Shown here in pieces: positions 44,709-63,329 of a stretch of 64,000 nt of DNA; position 1 is the stretch's first letter, and each line of letters opens with the position of its first letter. Made by a program: the position numbers and the translations under genes. Origin of the DNA: Paecilomyces variotii (lineage: Eukaryota); NCBI GenBank assembly GCA_004022145.1, contig RCNU01000004.1. The stretch is one strand, 5' to 3'. Below the pieces are notes generated by a model. It saw only the letters and a program-made list of their open reading frames with translations. It ran no database searches and was not told the origin of the DNA.

Positions 44709-45884
44709 ATGTCTTCCACCGCTCTCGTCCACGATGACGATGTGATGGACCCTAGTCTCCAATCGATCCTCGACCAAAAGACGCTGCGATGGATCTTCGT
44801 CGGTGGTAAGGGAGGTGTTGGAAAGACAACAACCTCGTGTTCCCTTGCGATCCAGCTCGCGAAGGTCCGCAAGTCCGTTCTGCTCATCTCAACCGACCCC
44901 GCACACAACCTGAGCGATGCGTTTGGTCAAAAGTTCGGCAAGGAGGCCCGTCTGGTCGATGGGTTCACCAACCTGAGCGCCATGGAGATTGATCCGAATG
45001 GCAGCATTCAGGATCTGCTTGCTGGTGGAGAGAACCAGCCCGATGACCCCTTGGGCGGATTGGGTATGGGAGGCATGATGCAGGATCTGGCTTTCAGTGT
45101 ATGTGGTACCTCCCGTGGCGCGCTTGAACCAGCTTGTTTTCTATAAAGGATAAGATCGTTAACATGAGCAGATACCCGGTGTTGACGAGGCTATGTCCTT
45201 TGCTGAAGTGTTGAAGCAAGTCAAGTCTCTCTCTTACGAAGTCATTGTTTTCGACACTGCCCCCACCGGTCATACTCTTCGTTTCCTTCAGTTCCCTACT
45301 GTTCTGGAAAAGGCACTGGCGAAGCTTTCTCAGCTGTCCGGCCAGTTTGGTCCGATGTTGAACTCGATCTTGGGCTCCCGCGGCGGTCTTCCCGGTGGAC
45401 AGAACCTGGACGAGCTGCTACAGAAGATGGAGTCTCTGCGCGAAACTATCAGTGAGGTCAACACGCAGTTCAAGGATGCAGACCTGACTACCTTCGTATG
45501 TGTGTGTATTGCCGAGTTCTTGTCCCTATACGAGACGGAACGTATGATCCAGGAGCTGGCAAGCTACCACATCGACTCCCACGCCATCGTGGTTAACCAA
45601 CTACTCTTCCCCAAGAAGGGAAGCGACTGTGATCAGTGCAATGCTCGTAGAAAGATGCAGAAGAAGTATCTGGATCAGATCGAAGAGCTGTACGAGGACT
45701 TCAACGTTGTCAGAATGCCACTCCTGGTCGAGGAAGTTAGAGGAAAGGAGAAATTGGAAAAGTAAGATCAATCATTCCTTTTACCGGCTATCAGCAGCCA
45801 GTGGAGATATCAACGTTGCTGACTTGAGTTTTGCGTTACAGGTTCAGCGAGATGCTTGTTCACCCTTACGTGCCGCCGGAATAG
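44709..45884 (+). CDS. get3: Get3/ASNA1 ATPase (tail-anchored protein targeting); introns 45099-45171 and 45762-45841
   Basis: [49 protein letters not shown] and CDQCNAR. Confidence 0.97.
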
Positions 45885-48800
45885 GTGTACATCTAAGAAA
45901 CACAAACTGCAAATTTGAAAAATTAGCGAGACGAATGACGAATGAATAGATTTAATTCATTTAACCCCGAGTATATCTACATCCTTAGAGAAAATCTCTT
46001 CACATAGCTCTTGTTTATTTCCTAATCTGGAAATGATACTTCCAGCGCATCATCCCTGCACAAACCAAGTACCCAGCAGGCTCACCACCTAGTTGTCTGG
46101 CGTTCCTTGCCCGCCTTGTATTCTGCCTTGTATGAATCGCCACTCGCCTCACTATATGCTTCATCTCTCTGACCGTCAGCCCCAGGAAACATCTACAAAC
46201 GTCATGGGGTTCAGGGAAGGCCTCACATCGCCTTGCGAAGAGACTGCACGCCCGCATGCAGTTCTACACTACCAGAGCTGAGCAGCGACAATATCAGCGT
46301 TCTTGAAGGCGTCCGCCTGCTTATGCGTGACCAGTGCTGTCTCATAACAGCCTTGAGAAAGTATTGGCTCTGAAAGAAGCAAAAATCCCTCAACTGAAGT
46401 AGATCTTTCTAATGAGACCATACACACCTTCTTCTTATGGTTGCTGTACCGGTGTGCCATGGGTGGGCATAACACAGCTCACTACGTCTTTGCTCCAGCC
46501 CCCTCGATAGTATGGTATTGATAATCAGACGCGTAAGTCCCAGAAGTTTCCAGAGTCGCTCATCTCATCTTCTTTTTCGTCATATCTAAATATCATTCGT
46601 TTTGTATTCATAATCTTATGTCCCAAGATAGCAGGTGAGGGGTGGGGGAGAGGTGGAACTACCATACACTGAATATGGCCGTAATGATATGGCATATGCG
46701 ATCCTACAGTACACTACCATAAAAGCAGCCACACATCCTCGTTTCGAAGAGCCGAATCAATACCTCTGAAAGAGTTGATACTTTGAGATACTGTACCTCA
46801 ATAGGAATTCCTACGCAGTTGTTATAGATTAATATCGTAAGCTGCAAGGTCCCATTATAAGAAATGCGCTGTATCCAAGCTCTGGCACATTGAAAAATAT
46901 ATCCTTGATTGAGCGGGTTTGATTGTTCGATCCGTCCGGCTTCACCCTTTTTCTATATCGTCTATAGCCGTTTCCCCCGGTGGCATCGAGCCTGTATTAC
47001 CTCGTTTTTCTTACTCCTTCCATATATGGCTGCCTGTGACTCTTGCCGGTCCCAAGAGATAAGAGGTACATGAGAGCTGGATGGTACGAATATCCGTTAG
47101 CTCCATTCAAAAAGATGTAGACTCGCATCCACCGAAAGCGGAGGCTATATTCCGAGGATAAGCCAAATAGAGAGAGGTGATTACGGCCGTGTCTGGCGAT
47201 ATGTATTCCCATATTCCCATATGTGGTTAGTCATGATGATAGATAGATCTTCGAGGCCAAAGATGCCTGAAAGGAGGCGCACAATGGCATGCATTATACG
47301 AGCGGTTGTATCCAGGTCTTCCTTCCCAGTGGCAAAGCATTGGCTTCTGTACATGTTTCCTGTTTTGGCTTTGGGCTCTGGCGTTAGGTCAAGTACAGTA
47401 CCTACCTTAGGTAGTTACCGATTATGTCAAGCATGAGAGCGAAAACGATGGGGGGGACATGGCCTAAGAGAATACTCGACCCTGCTTCTGTGCATGCAAG
47501 GGGACCTTGGGCTTTTCTGCACCTTTTCATGGTCAACTTACAGATGGCGGTTTGCCACCATAGCTAGAGAGTGCTCTCTCCATGATCCCGCTTTGGCGCC
47601 TCACTTGTTGGATATACACAAGCATGGACAGGCTGTGGGTCGATGGCACTGTGGCCTTGAGGATAACCTACCAAGCCTTCGGAAAGGTGGGTCGACTTGG
47701 AATGCTATGGATGTATGTACTAGGCGCTAGAACTGATTAACTACAGCCTCAAAATCACGAACGTATGGTTTCTGAATGAGAATAGAGACCGCAGTAAGGT
47801 TTTGCTCCTGCACGGGGACTATCTCCACCGTCCGTTCGAACTCTGATCCGTCGGAGCTTCGCAAAGATTCATGAACGACAGATTCTCAATCGGTGAGAAA
47901 TACATCTACCAATCCCTCGGATACTTTTTTGGTCTGCCATTATCAGCAGCGTCACTGACGTGCTTTACAGCATGGATGTCTGTACCGCCGTCAGCTGTAT
48001 CAGTACGGCCCCAGCGCCAGGAGACACTGCTGAGTCAATCGCCCATCTCAGACTCCCACCCAGGAGCCTGGACTAAAGATAGACCATGGAATATGCCAGT
48101 GGCAACAATGAAGCGGAAATTCTGCATGACAACTTCTTATGTGAGGTTTGTTTCGCATCCAATAGCCGCGCGACTTCTCCGGTTTCGGGGGTAGCCAGGA
48201 GGGATCAATAGGACCCATTATCCACCGCCTGTCACGCGGTGTGATATTAATGAGCACCATTTTGCGTATTCTGAGTTCGATACAAAAAGACTCCGTACCG
48301 GAGAGGTACTGTTTTGTCGGCTGCTGCGTCCATCATGCCTTCCTCTCGTCCCTCAACTCCGCTATGGGTATTGACTAAGAACCTCTGCTTCCAGCTAACG
48401 GAAAGGAGATTATGTCGAGTTTCCCAATGACTCCGTATCGGCGCAGTGTATTATGCGAGACTGAAGTCCTTAACGCTGCAAGAAGGTTCTGGGGCAAAGT
48501 CTGGACTCGAGGCACTGTGCGATCCGTGGGGCCACGACATCGTCGCAGCAGCACCCAAAATGGCGTCGCATGCTCGCGCGCAAAGAACATCTATGACGAG
48601 CCAGAGGCGACTGCAGGAAAACGGACGAAATAACCCAGGAGTGACCGGATTCAGTGGACTGTGTGATCCTCATCGACTTGGGAGGGACCTGGACCGTGAA
48701 GCCTCACTTTGGCGATCGTTGGACGGGGTCATCTGAAAAAAGAGTGAGGCGGCGGCTCAGCGTGACATAAACATCATCTTCAACGGCGAAGCGAGGGTCT

Positions 48801-49079
48801 CTCATCTATTCCCGGTAATCGGTATTCCCACGATGGATCTTCCATGTCCGCCTGAGAAGCGGTAGCTTTCAGCCCGCGATAGAGGCGTGCGTGAGACCTC
48901 GATCCCGCCAGATGTTTGCGGTTTGTTCCTGGGCTTAAAAGGTGGGAGTTCCTGCTCGACCATGCCGATGTGGAAATGCCACACGTCTTATTAATCTATT
49001 TAGCTCCAGTATAGCCTCTTCGACCAGTGCAGTACCCTGCTAGTGTCAACTATCAACAGACTTGCTTACTGTATCAATT

Positions 49080-49561
49080 ATGTCCCGGGTTCAACGATAC
49101 TGGCTTCCTGGATATGGTCTCTCACGGCACATTGTACTTGGTCATATACAATACTTTCTTGGTCCATCTGCTTCAGCACGACCCTATACTTATCAGGTAA
49201 CGACATCCTTGCCATATGGTGCCTCGTATCATCCAGACTCAGATTGTTCCTGACTCTCTCTTCGAAGGGGCGCGATGGTTATCTTATCGTTGGTATGCCT
49301 TTGACACGAGTATGCCCTTCAACCATGTTCGTATCCATCACATAAAAATAGCAATTGACTTGACATTAGGAGCAAATCGAGGATCTAGCGGCCATGTCTC
49401 GAGAATACGAACGTCAAGAGGCTCTTCGAATGGCTAGCAACGCGTATCTCGACAGCACAGGGAGATACTCGCCCACTGAACCCTATATCAACGAGCTGGT
49501 TCCTGTGGAACAGCGCCCACGCAGACGGCCAGTGGAGTGCGACTCGAGGCGATATCGTTGA
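49080..49561 (+). CDS. 116-aa RfeG-like small protein; exons 49080-49196, 49268-49309, 49370-49561
   Basis: Two phase-0 GT-AG introns give MSRVQRYWLPGYGLSRHIVLGHIQYFLGPSASARPYTYQ|GRDGYLIVGMPLTR|EQIEDLAAMSREYERQEALRM... This resembles the RfeG N-terminal motif (YFxPxxGIxRxVIxxxIxxYLGxxAxVRP..GxxGY..LTxxxIxDL). Confidence 0.75.
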
Positions 49562-51696
49562 TGTTGAGCCCCCGGAAACGGGTGCTCTTTCTCTTAAGAT
49601 CATACAATGATCGGATGATCGATTTCCTTTAATTGTTGCAACAAGGGTAACTCTCTTGTTGTTGCGTCATTGAGATACAACGTGCTAAGTATGTACCTTT
49701 TGGTACTTAGCATGTTACACTGTTTCGCATGGTACACAAAACTGCAGGGCCCATTCCCATAATGTCAATCTGGCGTGGGGAGTGGCATCCATATCCATCA
49801 CCGTCAGTTTATGGGGTGTTTATGGCCTGCAGTCGCGAATTGTCGAGTGAGGTTAGTACTTAGAGCTGCAAATTACACCATTATACCCCTTTCGGTTATC
49901 TATCTCGTCGTGAATTCTGAATAGTGGAATTTTCCTATTCAAAAAGCTTACTGTTCTTCATCTACACCCCCTCTTCGTGAATGTTCAATGCTGTTATCCT
50001 TTATTTCCCATTTCATACAGATCACCACAAAGATATACTTTCGGCTATACACCTGCTTATTGGACGTCCCAATAACCACTTGACCAAGAGACTTTGGACA
50101 GCTTCAGGTCGACGACCTCTAGCATCAATGCCACCACCCCCACCGAATGAACTTTAGATGCTTCCAGCTTATAGTAATGTTTATGAGTAACATTGATAGT
50201 CATCTTCCTGCATACGCGAATATCGTCAGAGAAGTTCCAGCTCCGGACTTTCGCCAATCTTCGTGCTACCCTACCTAGTTCCGGTAATCTCCATGGACGA
50301 ACCATATTAATAATAGCGCACCATCCATGGGAAGATATCTATGGCCGTTAATAACAATATTTCCTAGTAAGAGGGAACACAGAACCTCACTTATGCTAAA
50401 CCAGCAGATGGTATGCCGTCTACTTAACATACGAGACTATGACCCACTGTATTGTCACCCGCTATCGAGAGCAAATTGGAGAAAACAGACAAATAAATGC
50501 CTGACGGTCAGTCGAGCAGATACTTAGTCAAAGCCAGCTGTGGCCTACAAGCCAGAGCAACATATCAGCCATTGTCTTAATCACGGATTAAGTGAAATAC
50601 ACCCTGAATTATGCATGCAGCTTTCCAGCAAGAGAAGGTCATCTTCTGGTTCAAAGCTAAGTCCGCATTGTCCATTGTTGAATCCCACAACTTTACAGGG
50701 CAATGTGCTTCGTCTGTGTTCGATTACAGCTCGGACACTACTGAGCAGCTATAGGACAAATGGTCGGACAGGAACCATAAAACAGTAGGATATACAGTAC
50801 ATCAAATTGGCGCCGTCAAGCAACTTCATCCGAGGGATAACGTCTGTATCTACCTTCCGCGCCAATTCACCTCTCAGTGTATCCTTATGAAATCAAGAAG
50901 TACCGTCCATACTTATTTTTGCTTGCGCAGCATCGCTGTTTGAGTGGGTTACGTGCTGGGTTCACCAAGGAGCTAGGAGAGGCAGCCGCCAGTGCGAGGT
51001 AGTGTTGAGACGAAGGCCTCGTCCCAGTAACCGTAAGCAAGTAGAAGTCGCTCGAAAGCGGTCCGGAAGGCGGGGTATATCAGACGCTGTAGTGAGAGGA
51101 AGCATAACCAGGGAGCTAGCTCATGTCATGTAAAGAGGCGTAGAAGGAAGTTACAACTCTCAATGATCGGTGGGTTTTAGAAAAATTCAGCTACAGGGGG
51201 TAAATATTTTTGACGAGATACCTAAGTATAGATGGTCCAGTATTTAGACAGCGCCTGATTGGAGCGAGATTACATTACTTGGAGCGTGACTGGGGGGCTG
51301 TGCTCAAGACCTTTGAACCTGGGCGGCTAATAAGGCGCACTTCGTGCTGCTTCACACTTGCCCATCTGACTCCCCATTATATTCCTTATGATGACAAGGC
51401 TCCCGTCAAATTTTAGCATCTGTCTTGTTTTCTCCCTCGACACATCTGTCGGCTTCTTTTGATTCTACCATCTTGGCCAGGTCTTTCACGAACAGATAAT
51501 AAGACGCGACAACTTCACCCCGCAAGCTGAGCTAGTCTTGGCATCAGCCTCAATGAACGAAAGACTAGGAATAACTATACCACGTTCTGACAGCTTGCTC
51601 TTGTGAGATTTGACTTGAACATCGTCAGTCTCTCTGCAATACTATTCCGTTACAGCAGACGGCGCGGGGTAGAGTAAGCTATACGACGGAAACAAG

Positions 51697-54600
51697 ATGC
51701 CAGCTTTCGAGCCAGAAGAAGGACCCCCCGGTAAAGGGTGAGTTCATTATACACAAGACTGATGGCTTATAAGCTAATTCATTTGAAAGAAAACGCAAAG
51801 CTGAAGACAAAACGCCGTTCAAATGTGATGAACCCAATTGTACACAAAAAGAGGGGTTTAGAACTGCAAATGATCTTGAAAGACACAGGAGACATTGTCT
51901 ATTCAAGAAGTCTGGAAATGGACCTCGGATGGTATATAGATGTTTTGCGTCTGAGTGTGGAAAGAGGTTCAGACGGTGGAAATATTTGGACGATTTTGGT
52001 CACCATCTTGCCGAAATGCATCCTAATGAAAACCCTTCTGAACTGTTGAAAAAGTAAGTATCCATTCGCTTTATGTATTATTATGCTTTCTTATCATACT
52101 TTTTAGGTCTGAAGAATGGTTCGCGAAAGAGGAAGCTCGTGCCAAAGTCAGGCTGTGGGGTTCATCCCTACGTCCTCCTCTAGCTCAAGATTCACAGGTG
52201 GGAATTACAGAAGAGGCCTCGAAGAGGTCTAGAGACTTGACTCTTATAGGCACTGGTTCGGCCCCAAGTCCCCCTCTAAACTCCAAAGTATTTACCCCGA
52301 ATATTCTCGGTTCATCCCAAAGCTTTATCAATACAGAGAACGTACCGCAGATGGAAATTACAGAAGAGGTCTTGAAATCTCTTCATATAATAAGTCGAGA
52401 AAGCTACTTGGCCGCACTATGCGTCCGGAAACCAGAGGCCATTGTATCAACAGGCCCCCTAAAAGGGATAATAGATACTTACTACGGACGTATTGCGGAT
52501 ACTTTCGATGCAGTTATTCTGATTGAGGCTTGCAGAAGAGGTCTAGTTGAGCGAGTCACACGATTTCGATTCCATTGGCTCTCCAGAGCGGTTAGACCAG
52601 GCTCGGTTCTCGTTTTTTGTGAGGATGAAATGGGCGCTCATTCCACCCAAAATGTCAGGCCAAAGGGCGACAAAATGGCAATACTTCAATGTATCGCTTC
52701 ACGCTCACTAAACCAACTCACCAAAAGGTGGTGGCTAGTAACTGACCCCGACAATTATACCTGGACCATCGTGGCTCATCCTCATCCTCATGAGCAAACG
52801 CATGAGTTGAAGCGGCCGCTGAACGATCAGCGCTTCTCTCATATCCACTCTATGCTAGCCTCAACTAAGAGTCTCACTGATACACCAGGATTATCCGGCA
52901 CGAATAAAGAGTCAAAGCTGGACGAGGGTCAGAGTCTCTCCAAATGTACTGTGTCCGAACTTCTGAAGACAGATGCAGATTTAACCGTGAAGTCCGAGAC
53001 GGAAAGCATATACTCAGATGACTACGCCACGTCCGACACTAGAATGGAATATCTCAGTGAATTTGCTGACGAGCTTGTCAAGGTTATCCAGCCTTACCAG
53101 CCTGATGAGAAAACTGTGCAGAGAATTTCCGCTGTCCTCTTGGATCTTCTCAAAGCTTTTGCCCTCAGCCTCGGTCATGGTTCACCTACCCCGTTGCATA
53201 GTGACATGGTGGTTCTCATTCACAAGAATCGGAAGTATGTTGAGCGGAGATAACGGTGCACTTATGGAGCGTTGCTAATTGTCGTTATTTTCCACTAGAT
53301 ACATCGTGACAGTGTTCAAGGAGCGCCTAATCAGAGACAACAGCAATAAGGAGAGGCCGGAATATGGGAATGACATGCCCTCGGGCGACATCATGTGCCT
53401 TCGGCAGTCGAAGAACGACGACCATGCCCATAAGCAAGTCCAACATACTGAACGCCAACTGGAGGCAGAGGCTCATGGACACGAATCTCTCCGTCTGCTA
53501 GAATACCGACGTCTTGTCCAGGGCGCCCCGACATATACATGGCTTCTCTCACACGTAAGAAACGAGTGCATTCTTTACACGCCTGGTCAGGACGTCGCAA
53601 AGGGCATCAGAAATGCCATCCTCAAATCATTACCTGTTTCATCGAGAATCAGCCATCAAAAGCCCACGGAAACTTTTAGCGTAGGTTTCAAAATAAAATG
53701 GGATCCTCTCAAGTTTCTGCTAGAGGAGTACGAAGAGGACCCGGCGGCAGCCCTCGAGCAAGCTCTTACTTTTACCGGGTTCGACAGTGAGGTCGAAGCA
53801 GAAAGCTTCGGCGAGTACATGCGTCGAACATGGCCTGTAACCGGTGATGCCATGGTTCTACTCCTCAAATCCCTTGTTTCAAATACCCGTGAAGGATTTG
53901 GTATGTGGTTGTCCCTCCCATCCTGTGCTCTCGCCACTAATACGCAACACGAAAATGCAGTCACCCGGGATGACGGTATAACTATGAACATCTCAATGCA
54001 TCCATCACAGGATTGCAAGTCATCATTGGTTGTATGGCTTGATATCTGTGGTACTGCGGCGTCTATCGCGGAAGTAGGCGAGCAGCTTGCGTGGGCTGCA
54101 AGTGCTCTTCAGTCTGCGCAGCACGAGCATACACTCGTGAGGAGCAAACCCATCATTAATTCGGTTCAAATTGGACACGTATCTAATCAGGACTCTCCTT
54201 CGATATCTTATGTATCTGATATCGGCATTGAACTACATGAGATAAATCCTTCTGCCGAATATTGCTGGTTGGGGCTAGTTTCTCGCCCAGCGGTCGTTGA
54301 GGGCTTCCCAATTCGACAAAGACCAGCAGAGTGCCCTCCGGGTCTCGAAATCCCACTTCACGTCATGGCTCATCTTATGGATACTCGAAAGGTACACCGG
54401 TTTCATGGAAAGACCGTGCTAAAGGGGTTCTCGACTTTGTTGGTCCCAACGGGAAGCATCAACGATACCATTAGCTGGCATCTTATTCAGCAAAGTAATG
54501 ATCAGCGAATTTCGTATCTTGAGAGTCAGATATTCCCAGACTTGACTATTTCAATCAGCCAGTTAGAGAAGGCCCGGCATATCCTGGGTTGGTGCCCTGA

Positions 54601-57115
54601 GATGGTATTCTACGGTGGTAAGGGGTTCCATCCCATTCCCACAAGGCTCTTGCATCTGACACTTAACACAGGAGCAGCCGATGCAAATTACGGAATTAGC
54701 GACTCTCAGCTTCCTCGGCTCCCTCCGCGTTGTGAGCTTCGTATTTTGAAGGATGCATCTCTATCCTCTGACTACACAATCACGGGGACCAAAGGATACA
54801 TCCTGGGCCGAAAAGATGTTCGTTTACGACGCAACGGCTACGTGAGTAAAATGAAATGGGTCGCTGAAAAATACATCAATGTTTGGGACGTTGGAGAGGA
54901 AAGGGGCTGGCTACTCAATGGAGCGAGTGGTCTGCTGCATCTAGTTCGTGCGTCTTTGGAGCGAGACAGGTCTGATTCAGCTCTCAGATCAGTACTTCTC
55001 CTCAAAGAAGATAGCTTGACTGAGGCTTCGAAGGCACACCACCCCGCCGCCGCTCTGCACATCCTTCTTAACCCGAAGAATGTGGACCTCAGTATATACT
55101 GTGTCGATGCGCATGTAAAATTCAAAGACCGTGTGGAGGACTTCTATGATCAGCTAGAAAAATTATACGACTACCAAGTCAGTGGCCTCAGAGATGTTGA
55201 AGGAACGGCTGCGGTACCACGGTCTTTGCTGGAAGGATGGGACTTTCAGGACCTGATTCTCGAAAGAGATCCCATTCATCCCCGTCATACCACTCTCAAC
55301 CAAGACGGATTATCTTGGGTTGATTTCATCCGCTCAATAAAGGCCATCACAGTATTTGGGCGTGGGTTCGGGGATATCATTAGGCCGCTGAACTCTTCTT
55401 GTTCGAAGTGGTCAAGATTGAAGCCGAAGAAATCATACCTTGCTGCTACCATGTTCGATCTGAATAAAATCATGGCTGCTCATGGTGATCCATACAGTGT
55501 TCCAATGAAACTAACCCATGATATCATGTGGAACATACCCGAAGAGGCATTAGCCCTTTGTCCGTGCAACGGAGACAGGCACAAAAGTCACACAATTTTG
55601 GTTCAGAGTCTTCTTCCCTCGAGCATGCGTCGTCAGCTACTTGCAATTTCCTCCATTCCCTCCAATATGGGACAAAATGACGGAGCTGTCATCTTTGGAT
55701 TCAACAAGAGACACCGGTGGTTCTGGAGCGATACTGGTCCACCATCACGGACGCCAATCCACCTGGGTAGCGATACACCCTATAAAGAGTCTCTAAATAC
55801 CCACTCTGACGATAGTGGCCTTGGGGGGAGTTCATATTCATCGACACCCAGTGAAACTGGGATGCCAGCTAGCTCTAGTTCGTCCGCCAACGATAACCCG
55901 AATTCCAGCCAGCGACTTAGGAAAAAACCCGGGTCAGGTAAGCGACAAATAGGCATCGGGAGCAATTCTCAGTCCGCAAATAAATACAGAATAGGGATTG
56001 TGTGTGCTCTACATATTGAATTGAAGGCTGTCCGCTCCCTGTTTGACGAAGCCCACTCCAATGTGGCAATAGCAGATGGAGACCCCAATTATTATGCTTT
56101 TGGACGCATGGGAGGGCACAATGTTGTTGCTGTATGTCTTCCACATGGAGTATATGGCACGAACGCGGCCACGGATGTCATATCGAATATGAGACGGAGC
56201 TTTCCGTCACTGGATTTCTGTCTCTTGGCTGGTATTGGAGCGGGTGTACCTTCGACGAAGAATGATATTCGTCTTGGAGATGTCGTCGTTAGCACACCCT
56301 CCGGAATGTACTCGGGCGTTCTCCCATATGATATGATTAAGAGTCTCGAATTAGGAATATCGCGACTAAATGGATACCTATGTCCACCACCGCAGACTCT
56401 GATGTGTGCAATTAGCGAGTTGGAGTCCGACCCAAATCTATCACCCACGCCCCTCGATGAGTTTCTGCAACGGATCCAAGAACGCAGTCCACAATATAAA
56501 TATCCAGGAGCAGACAATGATCAACTTTTCACCCCCGAATATATACATCCTAATGAGAAGGATGAAACTTGTGAGAGATGCGATCCGAGCTACTTGATGA
56601 GAAGAACAAGACGCTCTTCCGATCAACCGAGGATTTTTTACGGTCTGATTGCATCCGGAAACCGGTTGATGAGATCTGCTAGTGAGCGAGATAAACTTGG
56701 AAGAGAGCATAACGTGCTTTGTTTCGAGATGGAGGCAGCAGGGGTCATGAATACTTTTCCGTGCTTGATCATCCGCGGGATATGTGACTACGCCGATTCT
56801 CACAAGAACAAGACCTGGCAATATTATGCATCCGCAACGGCTGCGGCGTACGCAAAATTGCTTCTTTCCCGCGTCAGAGGGTCAGGTACAACAGAAAGTC
56901 TTGCCTCAACAGCTGAGGTTCTCCAAGATCAGTACTCCTCGAGAAAGAGATTACGATCACAAGAGACAGGTGGGTACAGGATGTCTAGGAAACGGCAGCA
57001 TAACCAAATGGCAGCTGCACAGTCGTGCTGGGATGGGGATGAGGGGAGACCCGAAAGATCAGATGAGAACGATGGTTCATCTGTGCACTATGAATCGCTG
57101 AGTAGCTCTGAGTAG
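51697..57115 (+). CDS. ~1711-aa multidomain protein: 2 C2H2-like zinc fingers + degenerate WOPR (Gti1/Pac2) + uncharacterised core + C-terminal PNP_UDP (Pfs) domain; exons 51697-51737, 51790-52053, 52107-53234, 53299-53900, 53961-54617, 54672-57115
   Basis: All five introns are GT-AG and the exons total 5136 nt in one open frame. ZnF: FKCDEPNC..GFRTANDLERHRRHC and YRCFASEC..DDFGHHLAEMH. WOPR-like: TYYGRIADTFDAVILIEACRRGLVERVTR..VRPGSVLVFCE. PNP_UDP: YRIGIVCALHIE..GIGAGVP..DIRLGDVVVS..CFEMEAAG..IIRGICDYADSHKNKTWQ. Confidence 0.8.
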
Positions 57116-57450
57116 CTGTCAACAGTGAGATCCGAGATGGCCATCGGTCCGACAGTGGCGCTGACTATGTTCGAGTCTAGCAAGCGAAAACTGTCTCATT
57201 ATTTCACTTCCAACGCGCTACTAGTATCTGTATCTCAAAGGCTCGCGAAGAATATTATAGGCAGTGGACGAAAGAATACCAGTTTGGTCAGGTCTTTCGA
57301 TAAGGATACTCGTCAAAATATACTGGTCTTCATCCTGGAATAGATTATTAGTGGATATGATTTTAGCAAGGTGAGGAATTCGTTTAGAAGTATTCCGCCA
57401 TATCATAATCCAAGATTCTCTTTATGGGGTTCAGAGGGCAATGTTTAAGA

Positions 57451-57733: not shown

Positions 57734-58827
57734 TCAAGCCTGCGACACCTCGAGGCCATGAGCTTGAAGCTCCATTGCCAGCAAATTGGCCATGCTTCTC
57801 TCTATATCCTCAGAAGATTCCCAATCTTTTTTAGTACAATCTTTGTAAGCTTCAATCACACGTGAATACCTTCCAGTCCATTTGGCATGGAAGTCCGCAA
57901 GCTTGGTCCCATGAGGAAGCCAAAAGCCATATGCGGGAATCTCAATTAGGGCTTCTTCCTTTTCATCTGGATTGACGGTGAATTTCCGCAGTCCCTGCCT
58001 AAAACTCGAGGCTAGTTTCGAATCCAGTTCACCAAGAACTGGTATAGTGCTTAGGCGGTCGATAATGGATGTCCAGTCTGAGCAGGACCTGACGATAAGT
58101 GTCGCAAGCCATTGGACAGGCTGAATGAAATAGGTGCCGCAAATCTTCTCCTCATAGTCCATGCATGACTGGGGGATCGTGAAACACTCAAGAGCTGCCA
58201 TGACTGATGCCACCGATGGTGTTGCTTCCCAGAGATTCATAGGAGCATAAATGGCCTCCAATGATAACAAGCCGACCCGTATCAACTCCTCAGCTACGCA
58301 AAATACACGCTCCTGTACTTTCCATCTGAACCACGCAATGTAAGCAATTTGAGTGAGGGCCTCCGGTCTTTTCTCAGGAGGAAGCCGGGAGAGCGTGCAC
58401 CATTCGGTTGTAACGGCTTCGTCCCCACGAGCGCACCACTCGAGGTTGATCAGTGCCATCTCGCCACTAATCATACTACTTGCCGTTGCGTAAGATGGAT
58501 CTGATACTGTATTTCGTGTTGTAGGATGTCGCAGAAAGTCCAAGGCTTCATTTCTTGGAGTAAGCACTCGGCGAGCACGGACGGGAGCATTCGAAAAGGA
58601 GATATCTAAGTAGTCGCGGCACATAACTTCGCGCAAAAGGCGAACAATTCGCGAGTCTGTGAAGGATTCTGGTGTCGACCGCAGGTTTGTAGGTATATTA
58701 GGGTTATTTAGTTTTTGATAGACGTGGGCCTTCTGCTTCCGCAGTGTCCAGTTTTCATCATCATCTTTCATTAACCCAAGTGTTCGCACAAAGGTCTGGC
58801 CCAATAGAGAGTTTCGAAGTCGCCCAT
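57734..58827 (-). CDS. Orphan hypothetical protein (345 aa from ATG 58771; possibly extended by an 18-codon upstream frame starting at 58827)
   Basis: More than 1 kb of stop-free frame with globular protein-like composition. TATA-like ATATATTTATAAAAAAG at about 59081-59097 on the minus strand. No family recognised. Confidence 0.65.
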
Positions 58828-59195
58828 TGGCGGAACGGCGATCTGAATAACTTAGTTGACCGGCTTGGGCGGATATGTGCACGTAGATATTTGATTGATT
58901 TAAGTCAAGTTCCGCGGAGATGAAGAAAGTAGGTAGTACTGACAGTAATGCAAGGTGATTGTGGCGTTGCTATTATGCTGGTCGGAAGGTCGACAGAAGC
59001 AAAATCAAGACCCCTCGCGGGTGCCTGCTTATCGCCAAGCTTCTCCTTCGGAGGGTCTGCTGCCTAAGAACTGTAGCTGCCTTTTTTATAAATATATTTC
59101 AGGGTGTAAAACGGCGGGAAACCTGCTATGCGGGAATCTGTCGAATATTGAATGATGGCACGGAAGCATAGCCTGACCAAAACGGCATGAATTGA

Positions 59196-59430: not shown

Positions 59431-59565
59431 AACCAAACCCCATTGATTGGGACGGACTATGATTTAAAATACCAAGATGTTGTGCACATTATTCATCCAC
59501 TTTCTATTTCAAACACGAATAGATACAATCCAAAGTGTACTGCGGAACAGAAAAACTATAAGATC

Positions 59566-61308
59566 TCACTCAATGACAATCATCAGTTTTTTCCACCAAG
59601 TATCACGGACACGCTCAGGTTTTTCAGCTGCAATGACTTCGTCCAGCCCAGTCTGTAGGTCGACAGCTTCCGATGGCCACATCCAAGGCTCATGACGGTA
59701 AACGATTCTGTGACCGACATACAAGACCACAAAGGCCGGAATACCAATGTAGGCAGTAAAGAAACCAGAAACAGACCATTCCTGGGGAAAGAATACCGTG
59801 AAACCGTTGACAAGGGTGAGGAATATAGATCCCACGAGAGCAATATACGCGCCCCACGGCTGCAGGCGTGATTTATACGGCCTCTCCACGCCTTGTACTT
59901 TGGTCGCTTTGAGGAAGCGGAAATAAATGATGGCGCAGCAAGCCCAGCTGAGGAAGCCAGATGTGTTGGTTAGATTCACAAACCAGTTGAAGACAATAGA
60001 ACTGGATGTTCCTAGCGAAAGGTATGCCAGGCCGGAGAACAAGGCACTGGTTCCAACAGCCACGTAGGGAAGACCCCAGCGGTTACAGGTCTTGAAGACG
60101 GAAGGTGCGTGGTTGGCCACAGCCAGAGAGTAGAGAGATCGAGATGACATGTACAGGAATGAATTTCCGGAGCTCCAGGCCGATGTGAGTACCACTGCGT
60201 TGACGATGTGGTCCAAAACTGGTATACCAGCATTCTTGATACCGATGACGAAAGGCGAGGAGCCCGCACCAGCACCGCCGTTTGTCAGCTTCTTGCTGTC
60301 CGATGGACAGATAACCGTGATGGAGAGGGTTCCCAGAATATAGAAGAACACGAGACGGTAGAAGAAGCGTCTTGACGCGCGAGGGATGTTGCGACGAGGG
60401 GACTCCATCTCGCCGCCTCCGATGACGATCAGTTCCGGCGCAAACATGAAGGCGAAGGCACTCAGGATAATGCAGTGTAGGAGGGCAACAAATCGTCCGG
60501 CATTGCCATCCACTATATATGTCTTCCCTGCTGTATACGGATGTTTCCAATAATGGAATCCTAGTCGCTGATGGCTCGGACCGCCTCCCCAGAAAAGGAT
60601 GAACGACAACATCAGGAGACCGACGAGAAGGATGACTTTGAGACTGGAAAACCAAAACTCCGATTCACCGTAGAAACTGACAGGCAGCAGGTTCAGTCCG
60701 ACGATGATCACCAGCATAACCTAACCATCGGCGTCAGCAGTCACTTCTTTCAATTCGGGGTTTTCATCGCCAAAATCTCAATTACTTGCCGTTATCCACA
60801 CGCCAATTGAGATGTGACCTTCTGGATCCCAGTATCCTATCACTAAGGAAGCGGCTGTGATCTCATACGGAACCAGAATTCCTAGTGAATACCAATACAG
60901 GTACCCCATTGAGAAACCGAGGCTGCTGGAGACATATCGATATCCGTAGTAACTCATACTTCCTCCGTGCACCGGCAAGTAAGACGCAACCTCGGAAATG
61001 GCAGTGACGATAAAAAAGACGAGAAATGCGACAATGATATACGATGCGAACAAGAAGGCTGGGCCGCCCAATGCTAGAGCTTGGCCACTGCCTACGAACA
61101 GACCGGTACCAATTGTTCCTCCCAGGGCCATCATCTGTAGATGGCGACTCTTCAGTCCGCGCTTGGTGGATGCATATCGTTCGTCGTACAGATCAGCTTC
61201 AATCTTCGACGTGAGGTTCTGGCGTGTCTCGATGACCTCGCCATCTTCCGGGGCATCTTCAACGTCAGGCGGCAAGGCGCCCTTGGTATCTTGTGATTTC
61301 TCCCACAT
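59566..61308 (-). CDS. APC/YAT-family amino-acid permease (proline permease PrnB/Put4-like); one GC-AG intron 60789-60721
   Basis: TKRGLKSRHLQMMALGGTIGTGLFVGSG, YGESEFWFSSLK, GFHYWKHP, GEMESPRRNIP, SPFVIGIKNAGIPVLDHIVNAVVLTSAWSSGNS and FFTAYIGIP. Confidence 0.93.
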
Positions 61309-63329
61309 GGCTGGCAATTGAGGAAAATCAACGAGTGCAAAACAACAACTAATGTTGATTTTCCCTGGGGGTTACTGATGGATGCCCGGGGGTCTCAGCC
61401 TATGCCGCCTGGGCGTGGCCGGATCAAGATCGAGGATAGGGCTGTTGACAAGAATAAAAAGCAACAGGGTCTGGGAAAACAGCTATGGGATATATTACTA
61501 TATTATTATTCTCCTCGTGGCAACATGACAAGAGCACCTAGCGCATGGGGTCCCCATCTTTGGTTGAGGGCGCCGCAGTAAGAGCTTCCGTGCACATACA
61601 GTACACCTGCAACGGCCGCAAAGAAACCACATGGGAACAGAGACTGACAGATTGCCGAGAAACTTAGACAGAGAGCAAAATGCTTGGAGCTGGGTTGCCA
61701 CGCCGCCAACTAGTTCTTGTCAAGCGTTATGCGAGATAACCATCGAGGAGACGCCATTGGGTGGAGAATTATCCTTGTCGTAGTTGACAAGCGTGGTAGA
61801 TAAGGAGGACAGTTTCGAATCTACAAGCAAGAGACAGCCTCGTTGAGAATCTCTTCATGTTGATCAGTCAGCTCCTGCATATGCGCTTCGAAGATAGTCA
61901 GCACACGGCATTCTAGAAGGACAAGATCATACTTGTCGCATTCCCGAATTAGAATATTGAAGGAGAGCCGGAACTGACCACATTCACATCTTACCATTTG
62001 CATCCATATACAGTGCAATTCCCCCCGGTCTCTCGCCCTTCCTCGTGGATCCGAGAGTCTTATCAAACCCTGCTATAGCACACGTAAACGTCTCCTGATA
62101 AGCTTAGAATCACCCCAAAAGTAATAATATACACGGGACTTGGCAAGAACGACGCCACATTAACTCGCAGTCTTTTTTTCCTTCCTTTTCCATCACGAGA
62201 GGTCAACGCCGCTCATAGAATAGAACAGCGCCTAGGTGTGCGCCTCAAAAATGTTATGACGGCTTATCTTTTCTTAAGTACCACGTAGATTGCAGTAAGT
62301 AAGTACTCCCGAGACAAAACGACGGCGGTTAGTTATCATTTGCCGAGCCGCTCCTTTCGAGTTAGGGCAAAGGGAGAAGAAGCGTATGACTCGGCGAGGA
62401 TCTTCGGGCAAGTCTACCCAGGTAGTCTACTTACTCCGTAGTTGAAACGGAAATGGATGAAACTTGGCCCATATGCCTAGAAAGAATTAGCGTACTCGTC
62501 ACGAATATACTGTTAGTACATACTACATCGTAATCACAATAGGAAGGGCATTGCAGTTCAAGTAATAATCGAGATAAAGAGGTGTTTTTGTGTTCACACT
62601 TCATAACTTCTATGCTTTCCGTCAGTGGCTTTCCAATGTCCGCTTTTGTTCATTCTGATATCTTAGGCTTTGCAGATACACCCGGAGAAACTACTAAGAT
62701 AGTATCTAGCGCATAGGACAACACGCTACCGTATCCCCAAGGAAAAGTCCTACTGTACCAGTATGTCCGTGGTGAGCGCCACGCCGAGTACGAACGTCCC
62801 GATAAGATTTCGCATCCAAGATATGATCGAAATGCGGAGCGATATGATATCAGATAAGGTCCGGGCTATCTAACTCCTTCAAGGTCCTGATTGTGTACGT
62901 AAAGTGGGCGATACGACAGGCGAGGATCAGACCAAAACAAGGGAGAGATAATGAGGGGAAGGTAACGAGTTTAAGTCCCATTAGAGAGAAAAAGAAACCC
63001 ATCTTCACTTGCGTCTATCGACTATTCATAACAGCATCATAGATCACATGATATTTTTTGTGTGACCCACGGGGTACACTGCACCATCCCATCAATATAT
63101 TTTGGGAGTCGGGGTCTTCCCGACGGAAAATAAACTCTCGAAGGCAATAAAAGGCAGCTTCAAGATGGGTAAAAGGAAAAATCAGGTCGAACAGAAAAGA
63201 AAAGGTGGACCGCCTGAACGCCAGCCCTATGCCACACTACTGGTCCCATCGATCAAGAAGCCTGCAATTCGTGGTTTGTTGATTAAGAAGAAACAGAGTC
63301 GAAAGAGACGGCCCTGCCACAGATCATGT

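Follow-up and report, generated by a model that had tools for sequence, protein, structure and literature searches.

The Paecilomyces variotii contig RCNU01000004.1 (assembly GCA_004022145.1) contains, within the stretch of 64,000 nucleotides analysed here (the window, whose positions are used throughout), a gene at 51697-57115 that raises an unusual question: why should domains resembling those of transcription factors be joined, in one very large protein, to a nucleoside-cleaving domain of the type carried by fungal nucleotide-binding oligomerisation domain (NOD)-like receptors (NLRs)? The predicted product begins with two C2H2-like zinc fingers and a segment resembling the WOPR domain, ends with a PNP_UDP domain, and holds between them a large core whose homologs are annotated as Pfam family PF28131. 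The answer we favour, with a probability of roughly 0.45, is that the protein is an immune-type sensor-effector in which the core gates a nucleotide-cleaving PNP domain and the N-terminus acts as a bait or targeting module.

The locus is one expressed and spliced gene of a Paecilomyces-like Eurotiales fungus, with a product of 1711 amino acids. Reading of the DNA together with alignment to the closest homolog placed six exons on the plus strand (51697-51737, 51790-52053, 52107-53234, 53299-53900, 53961-54617 and 54672-57115), which run from an ATG at 51697 to a stop codon ending at 57115 and splice into a single frame without an internal stop. All five introns are bounded by GT..AG: intron 1 (51738-51789, 52 nt), intron 2 (52054-52106, 53 nt), intron 3 (53235-53298, 64 nt), intron 4 (53901-53960, 60 nt) and intron 5 (54618-54671, 54 nt). 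Because the last two are in frame and free of stop codons, a 1278-codon open reading frame (ORF) reads through both; in stop-to-stop ORFs the locus as a whole is divided among three frames. A protein deposited for the same species (P0001, hypothetical protein DTO021C3_6212, 1711 amino acids) is 97.8% identical over the full length and shows gaps of 20 and 18 amino acids where introns 4 and 5 lie.

Evidence from RNA came from Logan contigs of four public runs (X1-X4) belonging to three studies, aligned to 51500-57300. The joints of introns 1-4 were each found in four of four runs and that of intron 5 in three of four, run X4 having no contig across that stretch. X1 yielded one contig of 7340 nt that covers 51500-57300 with the six exons joined and the five introns removed, X3 (RNA-seq on record) a 2525-nt contig connecting exons 1-4, and X2 spliced contigs connecting exons 1-3. 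These results bear out the original prediction of a single transcript with five canonical introns and a frame of ~1711 amino acids; its placement of fingers, WOPR-like segment and PNP domain also matches ours within about 30 bases. The contigs are assemblies, which show presence and not transcript ends or abundance, and the X1 contig extends ~1.7 kb beyond 57300 across a convergent ORF, so its length alone does not define the mRNA. Run X4, a food-fermentation metatranscriptome, additionally contained, beside the form seen in the window, a second variant of the 5′ untranslated region and the start of exon 3 (51532-52471). This variant differs by 15 substitutions, 2 nt inserted at 51558 and 3 nt missing at 52209, and its presence points to another strain or allele in the sample.

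The largest conserved element of the protein is the core of ~700 amino acids (53486-55765, plus strand; aa 541-1262), which has introns 4 and 5 inside it. PF28131 stands in the precomputed Pfam annotation of 51 of 51 homologs, P0001 included (query aa ~630-1320); the model was absent from the Pfam copy with which the window was scanned, and the label given to the core rests on the annotation of the homologs. The core is thus already on record as a family, contrary to what had been supposed, and a full-text literature search for PF28131 found no paper. An exhaustive phmmer search against 1.84 billion cluster representatives matched it to 3195 proteins at E≤1e-3, of which 2049 reach E≤1e-10 and 668 reach E≤1e-30; these are counts of clusters at 50% identity, with 3195 as a lower bound. 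Named homologs come from the Eurotiales, Chaetothyriales, Hypocreales, Xylariales, Diaporthales, Pleosporales, Helotiales and Orbiliales, so the family spans the Pezizomycotina. The part with wide conservation is aa 541-1262. Closer relatives can be aligned from aa ~395, and BLASTP alignments with many homologs start at query aa ~390-420; the pre-core region that they share (52984-53485, plus strand; aa ~395-540, with intron 3 inside) is conserved in closer relatives only.

Within the core, C780, K833 and D970 (protein numbering) are invariant, and W781, W851-H852, R884-H885, G888-W889 and several more Cys and His positions are invariant or nearly so; the conserved residues are common to members with and without a PNP domain. 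The six core motifs quoted in the original prediction, together with the MEAAG and CDYAD motifs of the PNP domain, are all present in the product. AlphaFold2, given an alignment of 75 sequences, returned a confident α/β model (predicted local distance difference test 84.3, predicted template modelling score 0.82), in which the only long low-confidence stretches within the conserved core are the two introns that had been read through. A Foldseek search of the 827-aa model against the PDB gave 0 matches at E≤1e-3 (aa ~1040-1262 were not searched alone), and a separate model of the middle part of the core matched no solved structure above noise. Against PDB sequences, the best values were E 0.8 for the core with phmmer and E 1.4 for a profile of 40 sequences. 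Neither the core nor exon 3 had a match in PADLOC or NCBIfam, and the ESM Atlas offered no usable match for the window core, its homolog P0038 scoring at most 0.84. For the fold of the core these searches mean "none found" rather than "none exists". The best Foldseek match was chloramphenicol acetyltransferase, at E 0.1 and probability 0.23. A papain-like Cys-His-Asp protease was also considered, prompted by a G-x-C-W at the start of a helix, a His in a strand and a later Asp; as no fold match supported it, it is no more than a guess.

Downstream of the core, a linker rich in Ser, Pro, Gly and Asn (55766-55963, plus strand; aa 1263-1328; 64% S, T, P, G, N or Q) leads into the PNP_UDP domain (55964-56899, plus strand; aa 1329-1640), which resembles nucleosidases of 5′-methylthioadenosine and S-adenosylhomocysteine (MTA/SAH). 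The Pfam model PNP_UDP_1 (PF01048) matched it over positions 1-209 of 233 with 24.0 bits (E 2.9e-5), and the same model scores above its cut-off in most homologs. At E≤0.01 the domain matched 15 MTA/SAH or futalosine nucleosidases in the PDB (best 9.3e-5), and its FEMEAAG and ICDYAD align to the EME and SD-x-AD of 4jos and 4bmx. The E of EME and the D of S/C-D-x-A-D are catalytic acidic residues of MTA/SAH nucleosidases; E-x-E and D-x-x-D are kept in 88 of the 89 C-terminal PNP domains of relatives. As an MtnN equivalog the domain scores far under the cut-offs (NF004079, 56.3 bits against 169; TIGR01704, 17.1 against 73.8). PADLOC models of defence effectors also matched (PDC-M60C, 44.3 bits; 'Effector, PN-superfamily', 42.4 bits). 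Its identity to the N-terminal PNP domains of P0039 and P0049 (both PNP-NACHT) and P0041 (PNP-core-PNP) is 34-42%, in agreement with the earlier assignment to the subtype found in fungal NLRs. The protein closes with a tail (56900-57112, plus strand; aa 1641-1711) whose basic clusters, RKRLR and RKR, are putative nuclear-localisation signals.

An NLR itself the protein is not. Pfam matched no NACHT, NB-ARC, TPR, ANK or WD domain at E≤1 in the exon translations, and the Walker A pattern [GA]xxxxGK[ST] does not occur in the 1711-aa product, as had been predicted; no HEAT or other repeat family was found at E≤1, and the C-terminus is occupied by the PNP domain. Having neither an NTPase nor C-terminal repeats, the protein falls outside the fungal NLR and STAND (signal transduction ATPases with numerous domains) class.

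How the core is used elsewhere was read from 190 relatives, which were scanned against Pfam (thresholds E≤1e-3, 1e-4 or 1e-5 according to batch) and in which the core and the PNP domain were mapped with purpose-built family hidden Markov models (HMMs). A near-full core was present in 161. In these, a PNP domain follows the core in 81 and precedes it in 10, six of which have both, while 76 have no PNP domain. Nothing other than a PNP domain or Peptidase_S8 was found after the core: P0183 has Peptidase_S8 in that position and no PNP domain there. Peptidase_S8 is another known effector domain of NLRs. At the other end, 54 of the 190 carry an N-terminal domain, detected by Pfam or, for PNP, by the family HMM, and these are of ~20 kinds. 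NTPase domains (NACHT, NPHP3_N, NB-ARC or AAA_16) are found in 14 relatives and protein kinases in eight; Zn2Cys6 (one protein also with Clr5), LRR and ankyrin occur in three each; PHD, PAH, caspase, DUF7082 and DUF7580 in two each; and WOPR, HLH, C2H2, Myb, bZIP, ULD_2, WD40, TPR and T5orf172 in one each. Four relatives have PNP as their only N-terminal domain. The T5orf172/MUG113 domain, which is GIY-YIG-like, stands at the N-terminus of P0146, and P0067 has the arrangement PNP-PAH-core-PNP.

In members with an NTPase the domains run [PNP]-NACHT-(repeats)-core-[PNP], with the core always downstream, as in P0132 (PNP-NACHT-ANK-core), P0091 (PNP-NB-ARC-TPR-core-PNP) and P0031 (NACHT-core-PNP). 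Since NACHT, NB-ARC or AAA_16 lies upstream of the core in 14 of 190 relatives, the family is not independent of NLRs; the original prediction had proposed an NLR-independent receptor.

The two ends of the protein have very different histories on a FastTree tree of 162 cores (the 161 near-full relatives and the window protein). N-terminal labels, scored as 21 states, required 46 changes, compared with a mean of 54.2 and a minimum of 51 when shuffled, and are scattered over the tree nearly at random. The 14 rows with an NTPase required 12 changes, at least 10 of which are forced by strongly supported branches, and the eight kinase rows required eight. Transcription-factor or chromatin domains (WOPR, PHD, HLH, C2H2, Myb, PAH, Zn2Cys6 and bZIP) occupy 13 of 55 labelled rows and required 10 changes. 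The C-terminal PNP domain, present in 82 of the 162 rows, required just six changes, against a shuffled mean of 54.4. Set side by side, 46 changes and six indicate that the N-terminal modules have been swapped often and that the coupling of core to PNP is old and stable. Support values from FastTree are local only, the program issued two long-branch warnings, and the sequences are representatives at 50% identity that sample clades sparsely. The expectation of many exchanged N-terminal domains on a constant core plus PNP was borne out: homologs retain the core, half of them the PNP domain as well, and differ widely in what they carry at the N-terminus. The window protein is a member of the half in which the core is permanently coupled to a C-terminal PNP domain.

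What the window protein carries in the exchangeable position is a module of transcription-factor-like parts. The two C2H2-like fingers (51824-52021, plus strand; aa 26-50 and 65-91) have non-canonical spacings, read as C-x4-C-x14-H-x2-H(C) and C-x4-C-x14-H-x5-H, where the canonical form is C-x2-4-C-x12-H-x3-5-H; the zf-C2H2 profile (PF00096) gave 18.2 bits against a cut-off of 25.2, with one partial finger matched. The WOPR-like segment follows at 52477-52790 (plus strand; aa 226-330). Its similarity to Gti1_Pac2 (PF09729) was confirmed above the cut-off, at 32.4-32.6 bits against 23.6, but for the first third of the model only: the match spans model positions 1-54 of 168 and window positions 52477-52635 (aa 226-278). 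The WTDG motif is conserved across the WOPR family, and a KRWTDG-type motif makes contact with DNA. No WTDG was found in the 1711-aa product, in keeping with the absence of KRWTDG noted before; a KRW stands at aa 308 and is followed by WLVTD. A phmmer search of the segment against PDB sequences gave no match at E≤1, and a word-based homolog search recovered only P0191, a fragment of the same gene.

In Aspergillus filifer, protein P0006 has finger 2 and the WOPR-like segment in conserved form, and retention of fingers and WOPR-like module over that distance does not fit the plain erosion that had been suggested. The P. variotii strain DTO271G3 differs: its protein P0002 (1494 amino acids) keeps finger 1 but, compared with 51941-52984, has no finger 2, linker or WOPR-like segment, and is only 87% identical over the remaining sequence. 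Behind this difference lies either a genuine structural allele or another gene model.

From this architecture we infer that the PNP domain may act as an ATP nucleosidase, that the core would gate it, and that the N-terminus would serve as bait or for targeting. By analogy with nucleosidase effectors, the PNP domain would be the output, cleaving the glycosidic bond of adenine nucleotides, probably ATP. The core, which lies directly upstream, would hold the PNP domain inactive until a signal arrives; bacterial Cap17 and DtcC have the same order of domains. The exchangeable N-terminal module, here the two C2H2-like fingers and the first third of a WOPR domain, would confer specificity, either by baiting an attacker of such transcription factors or by targeting the protein. 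That it may be a decoy is plausible by analogy with integrated domains in other receptors, and the frequency of transcription-factor and kinase domains in relatives, the partial WOPR domain and the low-scoring fingers would all fit a bait. There is also evidence for a role as an address, namely the many relatives with full-strength DNA-binding domains, the retention of the module as far as Aspergillus, and the housekeeping neighbourhood.

Several observations weigh against an immune-type sensor-effector. RNA runs of ordinary culture type and from food fermentation show the gene expressed, and its neighbours are of housekeeping type, with no NLR cluster. The PNP_UDP_1 score lies just below the Pfam cut-off of 25.1, and PADLOC matched no more than the final ~70-90 residues of the domain. 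Since 76 of 161 near-full-core relatives have no PNP domain, the core must play some role without it; with its invariant Cys, Lys and Asp and near-invariant His, it may itself be catalytic. Conservation of the N-terminal module between Paecilomyces and A. filifer agrees with a functional nuclear module no less than with a bait. Finally, the N-termini of the relatives are automatic gene models, some of which may merge neighbouring genes.

The first alternative, which we regard as unlikely, is that the protein is a working nuclear regulator: the fingers and WOPR-like segment would bind DNA or chromatin partners and bring core and nucleosidase to the nucleus, where the protein would serve regulation or metabolism, for example MTA/SAH or other methylation-linked nucleoside turnover, with no part in cell death. 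The 13 of 55 labelled tree rows with transcription-factor or chromatin domains, which need at least 10 independent changes, speak for it. Several of these domains show no erosion in relatives, where they score well above cut-off (HLH 55.6, bZIP 44.6 and PAH up to 89.7 bits); A. filifer keeps the finger 2 and WOPR-like module, basic clusters lie at both ends of the protein, the neighbours are housekeeping genes, and the best relatives of solved structure are MTA/SAH nucleosidases. However, in the window protein the WOPR match stops at position 54 of 168 with WTDG absent, and the fingers score under their cut-off. Elsewhere in the family the core is combined with NACHT, kinase, caspase, LRR or ankyrin domains, a pattern typical of conflict systems. 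The nucleosidase reaches 56 bits where the NCBIfam MTA/SAH nucleosidase model asks for 169, and it resembles the N-terminal PNP domain of PNP-NACHT relatives.

A second alternative, also unlikely in our estimate, makes the core the family's own enzyme or effector, with a Cys/His/Asp-type or metal-dependent site, and the PNP and N-terminal domains accessories added in some lineages. It would explain why close to half of the near-full members do without a PNP domain, why C780, K833 and D970 are invariant and W851-H852 and R884-H885 nearly so whether a PNP domain is present or not, and why the core follows the repeats in complete NLR-type relatives such as P0132 and P0091; yet the conserved Cys and His may just bind structural zinc. 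That a small zinc-finger/WOPR gene and a neighbouring core-PNP gene have been read as one is barely credible: the ORFs are indeed split across three frames and P0002 does lack finger 2 and the WOPR-like part, but spliced contigs from three studies join exons 1-3, 1-4 and all six through exact GT..AG junctions that preserve one open frame.

The surroundings of the gene are unremarkable. Ordinary genes occupy 1-45800 and 59500-61400, encoding an MFS transporter, a DUF7053 protein, eIF3 subunit 7 (eIF-3_zeta), an FAD monooxygenase, a UbiD decarboxylase, an IBR (RBR-type) protein, a WKF protein, a γ-tubulin complex component, an Aft1-domain protein (Aft1_OSA/HRA/HRR), an HIUase/transthyretin, an ArsA-family ATPase (Get3-like) and an amino-acid permease. 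Among the window ORFs of at least 180 aa, none was recognised as an NLR, HET or other incompatibility-type gene. The ~6 kb upstream of the gene (45800-51690) contain no ORF of that length and eight of at least 90 aa without a Pfam match; at a GC content of 0.43-0.55 the stretch is not obviously AT-rich, and among the possibilities for it are a long 5′ untranslated region or promoter, a non-coding RNA, and a gene or element in decay. Directly downstream, on the minus strand, lies the convergent ORF of 411 codons (57734-58969), which belongs to no Pfam family, its sole match being DUF1068 at E 0.017. The X1 contig would cover this ORF, which may reflect overlap of the transcripts at their 3′ ends or a contig that merges both genes.

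Parts of this picture are already known: the PNP effector domain, modular fungal proteins of immune type, the presence of the core in Pfam, and orthologs deposited as hypothetical or 'Pfs domain' proteins. Among the papers listed by literature searches of main texts, none describes the core, the size of its family, its stable coupling to PNP or its shuffled N-termini, and none a WOPR-PNP fusion. To our knowledge, innate immunity in fungi has been described almost wholly through NLRs, HET domains, amyloid signalling and gasdermins. A large family with a confidently modelled core that has no detectable solved relative, and with NLR-like effector and companion domains, would extend that picture; about half of the members, the window protein among them, lack a recognisable NTPase. 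Should the core regulate an ATP nucleosidase in a signal-gated manner, fungi would have in it a new scaffold for regulated cell death and a eukaryotic counterpart of bacterial sensor-PNP effectors, and DNA-binding and kinase domains captured again and again would be a fungal parallel to the integrated decoys of plants. The most far-reaching version, which we think unlikely, is that the PF28131 core defines a second class of modular, NTPase-free fungal immune receptors, in which the core would replace the NOD as switch or oligomerisation platform, transcription-factor and kinase domains would be repeatedly captured baits for factors from mycoviruses, mycoparasites or bacteria, and the hard-wired PNP domain would kill by depleting ATP. 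As a single expressed gene in a routinely cultured fungus, the locus makes these ideas directly testable.

Comparison with known systems places the protein between several of them. With the WOPR factors (Gti1/Pac2, Wor1, Ryp1, Sge1 and OsaA) it shares the N-terminal ~54 residues of the WOPR domain; unlike in those factors, the rest of the model is unmatched and the segment lies 225 aa inside a multi-domain protein of 1711 aa. The likeness to fungal NLRs of the Pfs-NACHT-ANK/WD/TPR type is closer. PNP_UDP is listed among the four commonest N-terminal effector domains of fungal NLRs in the cited passages of PMC4986451, and, as far as these and PMC1325252 describe it, the domain is of the same type and subject to the same combinatorial shuffling as the domains of the PF28131 core family. 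Kinase, Peptidase_S8, NACHT, ANK, TPR and WD40 are companions of both. Unlike fungal NLRs, however, the window protein has no NACHT, NB-ARC or repeats and carries its PNP domain at the C-terminus, and the constant element is a non-repeat core of ~700 aa where fungal NLRs have the NOD.

The order of domains finds its counterpart elsewhere. According to the excerpts cited from 10.1101/2023.01.24.525353, both toxicity in E. coli and cleavage of ATP are shown for a PNP domain from a fungal NLR, and Cap17 (CBASS), DtcC (Detocs) and a sponge death-domain protein (DDAN) place a sensor or adaptor domain before a C-terminal PNP domain, so that the regulatory-then-PNP order is shared with the window protein. 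The PNP domain of the window protein matches PADLOC effector models over its last ~70-90 residues and keeps the catalytic motifs. In contrast to Cap17 and DtcC, the upstream domain is unrelated, the protein is ~4 times larger and eukaryotic, and specificity for ATP is putative.

For the N-terminus the comparison is with receptors that have taken up foreign domains. Plant NLRs with integrated domains (NLR-ID) reportedly carry such domains as decoys; the window protein differs from them in having no NLR scaffold, and its bait role is putative. Putative integrated domains of Sordariales NLRs include C2H2 fingers and kinases, in the part of PMC12258605 cited here. To the extent that these accounts reach, the partial WOPR domain and sub-threshold fingers of the window protein resemble degenerate baits, and in its family, as in plant and Sordariales NLRs, transcription-factor-like and kinase domains have been fused repeatedly to a conflict-type scaffold.

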